Origin: Escherichia coli
GTDB taxonomy: Bacteria > Pseudomonadota > Gammaproteobacteria > Enterobacterales > Enterobacteriaceae
Length of the DNA: 64,000 nucleotides
Assembly (NCBI RefSeq): GCF_044324785.1
Contig: NZ_CP172127.1
Strand: one strand, 5' to 3'
Part shown: one piece after another, positions 16,675 to 22,563 of the stretch
How positions within the stretch are numbered: position 1 is the first letter of the stretch
Layout: each line of letters opens with the position of its first letter
The notes under the pieces: model-generated
What the model was told of the DNA's origin: nothing
The model's database searches: none
What the model saw: the letters and a program-made list of their open reading frames with translations, nothing else
Position numbers and translations under genes: made by a program

Positions 16675-16690
16675 AGTTTAGGGAGATTTG

Positions 16691-17725
16691 ATGGCTTACT
16701 CTGTTCAAAAGTCGCGCCTGGCAAAGGTTGCGGGTGTTTCGCTTGTTTTATTACTCGCTGCCTGTAGTTCTGACTCACGCTATAAGCGTCAGGTCAGTGG
16801 TGATGAAGCCTACCTGGAAGCGGCACCGCTTGCGGAGCTTCATGCCCCGGCTGGAATGATTTTGCCGGTGACCTCCGGTGATTATGCAATCCCGGTGACC
16901 AACGGTAGTGGTGCTGTCGGTAAGGCGCTGGACATTCGTCCACCAGCCCAGCCGCTGGCACTGGTTTCTGGCGCGCGTACCCAGTTCACGGGCGATACCG
17001 CTTCATTGCTGGTGGAAAATGGTCGTGGCAATACTCTGTGGCCGCAGGTGGTTAGCGTGCTGCAGGCGAAAAACTACACCATCACCCAACGTGATGATGC
17101 TGGTCAGACACTGACCACCGATTGGGTACAATGGAACCGTCTGGACGAAGACGAGCAGTATCGTGGTCGTTATCAAATCTCTGTTAAGCCGCAGGGTTAT
17201 CAGCAGGCGGTTACGGTTAAACTGCTGAACCTGGAACAGGCGGGCAAACCGGTTGCAGACGCGGCTTCCATGCAGCGTTATAGCACGGAGATGATGAACG
17301 TTATTTCCGCCGGTCTGGATAAATCTGCCACTGACGCCGCGAACGCTGCGCAAAATCGTGCCTCCACCACTATGGACGTACAAAGTGCAGCTGATGACAC
17401 CGGTTTACCGATGCTGGTCGTACGCGGGCCGTTCAATGTGGTTTGGCAACGTCTGCCAGCGGCGCTGGAAAAAGTGGGCATGAAAGTGACCGACAGCACC
17501 CGTTCGCAGGGCAACATGGCCGTAACTTATAAGCCGCTGTCTGACAGCGACTGGCAGGAACTGGGCGCGAGCGATCCAGGCCTGGCATCCGGTGACTATA
17601 AACTGCAGGTTGGCGATTTAGATAACCGCAGCAGCCTACAGTTCATCGATCCGAAAGGTCATACTCTGACTCAGAGTCAGAACGACGCGCTGGTATCTGT
17701 CTTCCAGGCAGCGTTTAGCAAGTAA
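16691..17725 (+). CDS. bamC: Outer membrane protein assembly factor BamC (NlpB lipoprotein)
   Basis: 344 aa; lipobox LLAAC|SSD; GGGAG RBS before ATG 16691; 16 bp downstream of dapA. Confidence 0.95.
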
Positions 17726-17732
17726 AAATACA

Positions 17733-17758
17733 GGGCTGGAGTCATCCGGCCCTTTTTT
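17733..17758 (+). terminator. Intrinsic terminator of dapA-bamC
   Basis: Hairpin gggctgga-gtca-tccggccc (8 bp stem) followed by TTTTTT at 17753-17758. Confidence 0.75.
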
Positions 17759-17768
17759 CTGATATGAT

Positions 17769-17784
17769 ACGCAAACGTGTGCGT
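17769..17784. promoter_or_regulatory. PurR operator (pur box) in the purC leader
   Basis: ACGCAAACGTGTGCGT matches the 16-bp pur-box palindrome ACGCAAACGTTTGCGT at 15/16; a TATGAT -10-like hexamer sits just upstream at 17763-17768. Confidence 0.65.
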
Positions 17785-17830
17785 CGGCAGAAAAATGCGA
17801 TTTTAGCGGTAATTCGCACGAAATTTGTTT

Positions 17831-17872
17831 GTCGGACGTAGGTCGGATAAGGCGTTCTTGCCGCATCCGACA
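17831..17872. repeat. REP-like palindromic element in the purC 5' region
   Basis: ggtcggataaggcgttcttgccgcatccgac has the REP signature (GGATAAGGCG...GCCGCATCC) with gtcggat/atccgac arms. Confidence 0.65.
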
Positions 17873-17936
17873 AAACATCCGGCACACCAGACAGCAAAGA
17901 TTTTAAAACGTTAATTCACACCCAGGAGTGATAAAG

Positions 17937-22483: not shown

Positions 22484-22494
22484 TAATAGCCGGG

Positions 22495-22558
22495 TAGGCC
22501 TGATAAGACCGTATCAGGCATCATGGCCGGATGCGGCGTTAACGCCTTATCCGGCCAC
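22495..22558. repeat. Pair of REP elements (BIME-like) between convergent ypfH and ypfN
   Basis: gtaggcctgataagaccgtatcaggc followed by ggccggatgcggcgttaacgccttatccggcc, a canonical REP sequence. Confidence 0.8.
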
Positions 22559-22563
22559 TCAGC

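Follow-up and report, generated by a model that had tools for sequence, protein, structure and literature searches.

Which of the elements packed between bamC and purC control purC, and does the REP-like palindrome among them take part in this control? We examined this question in a window of 64,000 nucleotides from Escherichia coli (contig NZ_CP172127.1), the whole stretch of DNA that was analysed, in which the list of open reading frames places dapA, bamC, purC, ypfJ and tmcA around the locus on the + strand. The spacer begins after the TAA stop codon of bamC (17723-17725, + strand), which closes the reading frame 16688-17725 and agrees with the bamC annotation in matching E. coli genomes. 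It leads to the purC Shine-Dalgarno sequence AGGAG (17924-28) and to the ATG start codon (17937-39), both read from the sequence of the + strand. The original prediction had described four elements in this spacer, namely a terminator, a -10 hexamer, a pur box and a REP-like palindrome, and each of them was found again in its place.

The spacer is about 97% identical, by alignment, to that of E. coli K-12 MG1655, and a stretch of 451 nt around it is found at an identity of at least 95% in 5425 of 5426 complete E. coli genomes. Because of this close identity and this near-universal presence in E. coli, data published for K-12 can be transferred to the window base by base, using a window-to-MG1655 coordinate mapping that was checked on the MG1655 locus (NC_000913.3). 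The differences between the two sequences are few substitutions and a 1-nt change in an A-run, all located within the leader insertion described below, and the sequence from the terminator through the pur box is identical. Furthermore, the translation of purC is 100% identical to PurC of E. coli and E. albertii.

The bamC-purC intergenic region is a known and well-characterised control region of E. coli K-12, in which the terminator, the promoter, the operator and the REP have been established individually. The original prediction did not mention this earlier characterisation, nor the TG of an extended -10, nor the direct repeats that flank the REP. Re-examination of the locus adds the extended -10 motif, the demonstration, from published data, of the transcription of the REP, and the recognition of a repeat-flanked insertion specific to Escherichia. 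It also provides evidence of weak constraint on this insertion, and a testable account, based on a PurR roadblock, of the published behaviour of the terminator. Taken as a whole, the locus is most probably this known control region, with its extended -10 and its PurR operator, in which an Escherichia-specific REP insertion would be carried as a tolerated passenger having a small effect at most.

Terminator, promoter and operator upstream of purC

The Rho-independent terminator of dapA-bamC (17732-17759, + strand) was delimited by a terminator scan, by folding and by published RNA 3' ends. According to the scan, its hairpin (17732-17753) contains nine pairs, six of them being G-C, and is followed by TTTTTT up to 17758 (T-run 17753-17758); its predicted folding energy is -17.0 kcal/mol, with a z-score of -3.95. 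The dapA-bamC 3' end located by SMRT-Cappable-seq at 2597797 (Yan et al. 2018, PMC6131387) corresponds to position 17759 of the window, and the Term-seq 3' ends at 2597798 and 2597799 (Adams 2021, supplements) correspond to 17758 and 17757. A GC-rich hairpin directly preceding a U-tract, together with in vivo 3' ends lying in this tract in two published data sets, identifies the element as a Rho-independent terminator, as had been predicted. Polymerases completing dapA-bamC would stop at this hairpin and its U-tract and leave 3' ends at 17757-17759.

The purC promoter (17760-17768, + strand) comes next. Its hexamer TATGAT (17763-17768, -12 to -7) is preceded by a TG at 17760-61 (-15/-14), and both form in the sequence an extended -10, TGATATGAT. 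No two-hexamer promoter was returned by the promoter scan, and a lone hexamer matching at five positions out of six is not significant. The purC -35 position falls in the terminator hairpin and offers no usable match. Since an extended -10 needs no -35, the promoter can overlie the terminator.

The purC transcription start site (+1) is position 17775 (+ strand), the third A of ACGCAAACG, located 7 nt after the hexamer. It corresponds to NC_000913.3 2597781 on the reverse strand, a start marked 'same' as the one of RegulonDB in Supplementary Data 1 and 2 of Yan et al. 2018 (PMC6131387), who report a single start site for monocistronic purC. A TG at -15/-14, a hexamer that has A2 and T6 and a start lying 6-8 nt downstream are the features of a sigma-70 extended -10 promoter; hence, what had been put forward as a -10-like hexamer is substantiated by the TG and by the published start. 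The extended -10 TGATATGAT, which opens four bases past the terminator, would start the purC mRNA at 17775. The promoter is invariant in the eight Escherichia sequences used to evaluate constraint (six E. coli strains, one divergent E. coli and E. albertii). There is no essential difference from purCp of K-12 (RegulonDB), the start site, the PurR box and the sequence from terminator to box being the same in the window. In addition, the -10 and the pur box are enclosed by a perfect 8-bp inverted repeat, TTTTTCTG / CAGAAAAA (17754-17761 / 17788-17795), which is 2 nt off-centre from the operator dyad, is found in Citrobacter and has one mismatch in MG1655.

The PurR operator, or pur box (17769-17784, no strand being assigned, -6 to +10), matches the consensus ACGCAAACGTTTGCGT at 15 of 16 positions. 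Its sequence, ACGCAAACGTGTGCGT, has a single mismatch to this palindromic consensus, keeps the central CG and is the sole match in the window, for a chance expectation of about 0.0007 sites with at most one mismatch per 64 kb. The predicted pur box is an in vivo PurR site in K-12: ChIP-chip of PurR in MG1655 gave for purC the site ACGCACACGTTTGCGT, which is the reverse complement of the pur box, and PurR sites that overlap promoter elements regulate initiation (Cho 2011). The element thus has the properties of a pur box, being a 16-bp near-palindrome that overlaps the purC promoter and that, according to the literature on MG1655 where the box is identical, is occupied by PurR in vivo. The box is ACGCAAACGTGTGCGT in 28 of 31 Enterobacteriaceae loci, two others have the mirror-image variant ACGCACACGTTTGCGT, and the box of Shimwellia contains an additional mismatch. 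From the geometry of the site and established knowledge of the pur regulon, PurR bound to its purine corepressor would block initiation by occupying the start site, which lies within the operator (-6 to +10).

One may ask whether these motifs are chance matches devoid of function in a spacer of mixed AT and GC content, given that a lone hexamer with five matches out of six is expected by chance and that the promoter scan was empty. However, chance hardly accounts for the pur box, with its expectation of about 0.0007, or for the coincidence of the motifs with the published start site, RNA 3' ends and PurR ChIP signal, and the terminator, the -10 and the operator are invariant across Escherichia. 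The start-site, 3'-end, ChIP and conservation results have therefore already refuted this explanation, to which we give practically no credence.

A REP-carrying insertion in the Escherichia purC leader

The palindrome predicted between the operator and the purC Shine-Dalgarno sequence proved to be a single REP (17838-17873, + strand), composed of a GTAG foot (17838-41) and an imperfect hairpin (17842-17871) whose arms are 17842-17853 and 17860-17871. The hairpin has a predicted folding energy of -17.7 kcal/mol and a z-score of -4.58. The element displays the attributes of a REP: a stable imperfect hairpin footed by GTAG, dispersed copies and an extragenic location, between the bamC stop (17725) and the purC ATG (17937). 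Its core is found at no fewer than 40 places in every E. coli chromosome and occurs again in the window at 22528-22552, 4.6 kb away, with no match in 100 shuffles. This second copy belongs to a BIME-like cluster of two REPs (22494-22560) located just past the stop codon of a minus-strand gene.

A search of Rfam at E <= 1 returned no riboswitch and no known leader, the only hit being a sub-threshold match to naRNA4 (RF02564). Its score is 31.9 bits for a gathering threshold of 59.5, and it covers one hairpin of a two-hairpin model; for these reasons, the identity with naRNA4 was rejected and the element is regarded as REP-like. It shares with E. coli REPs the GTAG foot, the GC-rich imperfect hairpin of about 30 nt, the extragenic location and the multicopy state. 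Unlike the REPs whose roles have been studied, which lie in 3' UTRs or between cistrons, the purC REP is solitary and lies 3' of the next gene's own promoter, which places it in a 5' UTR.

The leader that carries the REP differs in length from that of other genera. In E. coli and E. albertii, 168-169 nt separate the pur box from the ATG, as against 65-68 nt in Citrobacter, Enterobacter, Pseudocitrobacter, Phytobacter, Leclercia and others, among 80 loci encoding close PurC relatives, a set that does not include Salmonella and E. fergusonii. Alignment of the E. coli and Citrobacter leaders gives a single clean gap of about 101 nt. The terminator-operator module is conserved across Enterobacteriaceae, whereas the insertion is missing from Citrobacter, Enterobacter and others. 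In Citrobacter and Enterobacter, the short leader has essentially no structure, its folding energy being -1.6 and -3.7 kcal/mol, respectively.

Local alignment resolves the Escherichia leader into three segments of the + strand: an operator-proximal ancestral leader segment (copy A, 17785-17819), a unique core of 68 nt that carries the REP (17820-17887) and is absent from Citrobacter, Enterobacter and others, and an RBS-proximal ancestral leader segment (copy B, 17888-17921). Copies A and B are imperfect direct repeats of about 35 nt; their alignment score was reached by 0 to 7 of 2000 shuffles in four Escherichia sequences, and a repeat search indicates that they share a 13-nt core. Both copies align to the Citrobacter leader, in which the segment is single-copy. 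An insertion of about 100 nt, consisting of the 68-nt REP core flanked by two copies of about 35 nt, would have interrupted an ancestral, unstructured leader of some 60 nt. It would have arisen in the Escherichia lineage and is fixed in E. coli. Its flanks occur as single copies in 5425 of 5426 E. coli genomes, and no donor locus was found for them in E. coli. A flanking duplication of about 35 nt is unusually long for the insertion of a REP.

Variation within Escherichia is unevenly distributed along the spacer. In the alignment of the eight Escherichia sequences, one of 59 columns is variable from the terminator to the pur box, 10 of 36 are variable in copy A and 23 of 70 in the core (17821-17890), 12 of these 23 being due to a 12-nt deletion in one strain. 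The segment 17891-17936, which includes most of copy B and the Shine-Dalgarno sequence, has one variable column out of 47, corresponding to a change in the length of an A-run. The deletion is carried by E. coli AMSCJX03, lies directly 3' of the REP stem and aligns with positions 17872-17883 of the window; it shows that natural strains can do without this part of the leader. The REP hairpin itself is kept in all eight sequences, with folding energies ranging from -14.4 to -17.7 kcal/mol, and the substitutions found in its stem in E. albertii and in strain SCPM are not compensatory.

Several other genera have acquired unrelated hairpin-forming sequences in the same slot, between the pur box and the ribosome-binding site. 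These are Kluyvera, Enterobacter sp. BIGb0383, Shimwellia and Siccibacter, whose distances from box to ATG are 130, 100, 88 and 87 nt, respectively. These insertions are independent, and a hairpin at this place could be mildly useful rather than simply tolerated.

The REP and the expression of purC

The original prediction would have been undermined by a purC start site downstream of the REP. Since the published start (17775) lies upstream of it, the REP is included in the 5' UTR of purC: mapped from this start, the leader has a length of 162 nt and the REP extends from +64 to +99. Read-through variants initiated at the dapA or bamC promoters also reach purC (bamC-purC, bamC-purC-ypfJ and dapA-bamC-purC-ypfJ; Yan et al. 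2018, PMC6131387), and in these transcripts the REP is intercistronic. The transcribed REP would form a hairpin of its own, about 50 nt before the ribosome-binding site, and folding of the whole leader likewise gives it as an independent domain. The predicted mean probability of being unpaired is 0.70 for the Shine-Dalgarno sequence and 0.18 for the AUG, and in-silico removal of the REP alone, or of about one repeat period (the insertion), leaves both values as they were. Occlusion of the ribosome-binding site by the REP was thus rejected on predicted accessibility, and a function as a + strand intrinsic terminator was rejected because no U-tract follows the hairpin. The Term-seq supplements of Adams 2021 (text files) list no 3' end inside the leader, although repression of purC in rich medium could hide some.

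Two other potential structures were noted in the leader. In the minimum-energy fold, GUGUGC at the 5' end and GCACAC after the REP form a 6-bp long-range helix, which was treated as incidental: it lies in insertion sequence and loses a pair in E. albertii. On the minus strand, a weak terminator-like hairpin with TTTTG (17893-17876) adjoins the REP; it is probably due to chance, since its stem reaches only -0.8 kcal/mol on the plus-strand fold.

The suggestion that the REP affects the stability or the translation of the purC mRNA receives no support from these data: the insertion is restricted to Escherichia and variable, the predicted accessibility of the start region is unchanged and none of the listed 3' ends falls in the leader. 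Most likely, the REP is a tolerated, near-neutral passenger, and any regulatory role that it has looks minor. It may nevertheless play a modest role, for instance by hindering RNase E or, in read-through transcripts, by acting as a barrier to 3' exonucleases. Two observations call for caution. The first is that a REP hairpin of -14 to -18 kcal/mol is present in every Escherichia sequence examined, the insertion being fixed in E. coli and common to E. albertii; such retention is compatible with some benefit. The second is the presence of unrelated hairpin-bearing insertions in the same slot in Kluyvera, Shimwellia, Siccibacter and one Enterobacter species.

Alternatively, the hairpin could be a working post-transcriptional element of purC, which would prolong the life of the purC mRNA by slowing 5'-end-dependent scanning by RNase E or, in read-through dapA-bamC-purC transcripts, would shield the upstream bamC part from 3' exonucleases. 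Obstacles to RNase E scanning are known, the REP lies inside the purC transcript as a stable hairpin kept in all the Escherichia sequences examined, it also occurs between bamC and purC in read-through transcripts, and unrelated hairpins are found at the same spot in other genera. Moreover, according to a 2026 preprint, REPs located between tandem genes bias expression towards the upstream gene by termination and by blocking decay. Nevertheless, genera having the same control logic lack the REP, and within Escherichia the insertion has accumulated far more variation than the regulatory elements around it, with non-compensatory changes in the REP stem. Furthermore, no Term-seq 3' end is found at the REP, and the median read-through of 343-359 nt ends well past it. 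Starting 67 nt from the 5' end, the hairpin cannot protect the 5' terminus itself. The same 2026 preprint reports no genome-wide difference in half-life for REP-associated genes, and it describes tandem-gene REPs as context-dependent 3'-UTR elements, a REP located 3' of the next gene's own promoter not being addressed there. A working post-transcriptional element therefore appears unlikely to us, even if it is the more serious of the two functions considered for the REP.

The REP could also act on DNA, as a site for gyrase, HU, IHF or a REP-associated transposase that insulates supercoiling between dapA-bamC and purC. It does lie between two tandem transcription units, and clusters of REPs are reported, partly in the background of the 2026 preprint, to bind gyrase, IHF and HU. 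However, the purC REP is a single element rather than a paired cluster, its counterpart in the window lying 4.6 kb off; its match to naRNA4 is sub-threshold and concerns one of two hairpins; and there is no sequence support for an IHF site. In addition, the abstract of the 2026 preprint opens with the statement that the model REP325 'does not measurably...'. A function at the DNA level is thus very improbable, and the REP as a tolerated passenger is the reading that we retain. Accepted as such, the purC locus illustrates that a 5' UTR can host a REP with no disturbance of a control module that is otherwise conserved, by means of an insertion that can be dated to the Escherichia lineage.

The PurR operator as a possible roadblock and as a fixed point in a possible promoter turnover

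Read-through of the dapA-bamC terminator (data covering MG1655 2597772-2597813) was found to be 40% in M9 and 9-11% in rich medium, in agreement with qPCR across the terminator (Yan et al. 2018, PMC6131387). The read counts of this study are 255 ended, 197 passed and 45 within 50 bp in M9 versus 157, 17 and 21 in rich medium, a difference for which we obtained a p-value of about 2e-17 by Fisher's test. Its authors attributed the difference to a predicted RNA 'attenuator' located 10 bp upstream, the deletion of which raised read-through in rich medium only. A hairpin (17689-17719) located in the final codons of bamC, some 12 nt ahead of the terminator hairpin, is probably this deleted 'attenuator'. 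In the context of read-through, PurR and purC are mentioned neither by the paper nor by its supplements (Yan et al. 2018, PMC6131387).

The PurR operator starts 10 nt past the U-tract. When a polymerase is halted by a protein about 10 nt ahead, its active site would fall in the U-tract. PurR bound downstream of an elongating polymerase has been reported to block elongation at purB and purR (Cho 2011), and of the two media, M9 alone yielded the purC start site (Yan et al. 2018, PMC6131387), which is consistent with occupancy of the operator by PurR in rich medium. Furthermore, all 31 Enterobacteriaceae loci that have a box with at most two mismatches keep a gap of 9-11 nt between U-tract and box, while the sequence of this gap varies between genera and the downstream leader ranges from 49 to 153 nt. 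We tentatively propose that PurR bound at 17769-17784 stalls incoming polymerases in the U-tract and thereby raises termination. This would make the dapA-bamC terminator responsive to purines and would re-explain the values of 40% and 9-11%, a possibility that we hold as somewhat doubtful at present but worth testing. The purC operator would then act as a roadblock against upstream read-through, in addition to its effect on initiation.

The result of the attenuator deletion argues for a contribution of RNA structure as well, and the constant spacing between the U-tract and the pur box could be equally explained by constraints on the promoter. In comparison with the PurR roadblock at purB, the repressor and the type of operator are the same, and the purC operator additionally overlaps a promoter. 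In comparison with the terminator analysed by Yan et al. 2018, the hairpin and the 3' end are the same; the cause advanced there is an upstream attenuator, whereas the one proposed here is a PurR operator 10 nt downstream. If true, the roadblock would keep constitutive transcription from upstream from bypassing the control of purC by PurR. In any case, a repressor roadblock offers a simple and testable alternative to an RNA attenuator for the published condition-dependent read-through.

The position of the -10 relative to this operator appears to differ between genera, the side being assigned from sequence and the experimental purC start site being that of E. coli alone. In Escherichia, Citrobacter and Pseudocitrobacter, the best -10 (TGATATGAT) directly precedes the pur box. 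In Enterobacter and Leclercia (TGGCATAAT), Serratia (TGGCACAAT), Phytobacter (TAGAAT), Pseudescherichia (GATAAT) and Edwardsiella (TATAAT), it follows the box at a distance of 2-11 nt. In E. coli, cggcAGAAAAAt/c aligns with cggcGTAAAATa of other genera and looks as if it were a decayed downstream -10. These alignments suggest a turnover of the promoter around a fixed operator, in which the -10 appears to switch sides, and the purC locus may therefore provide an example of this type of promoter evolution.
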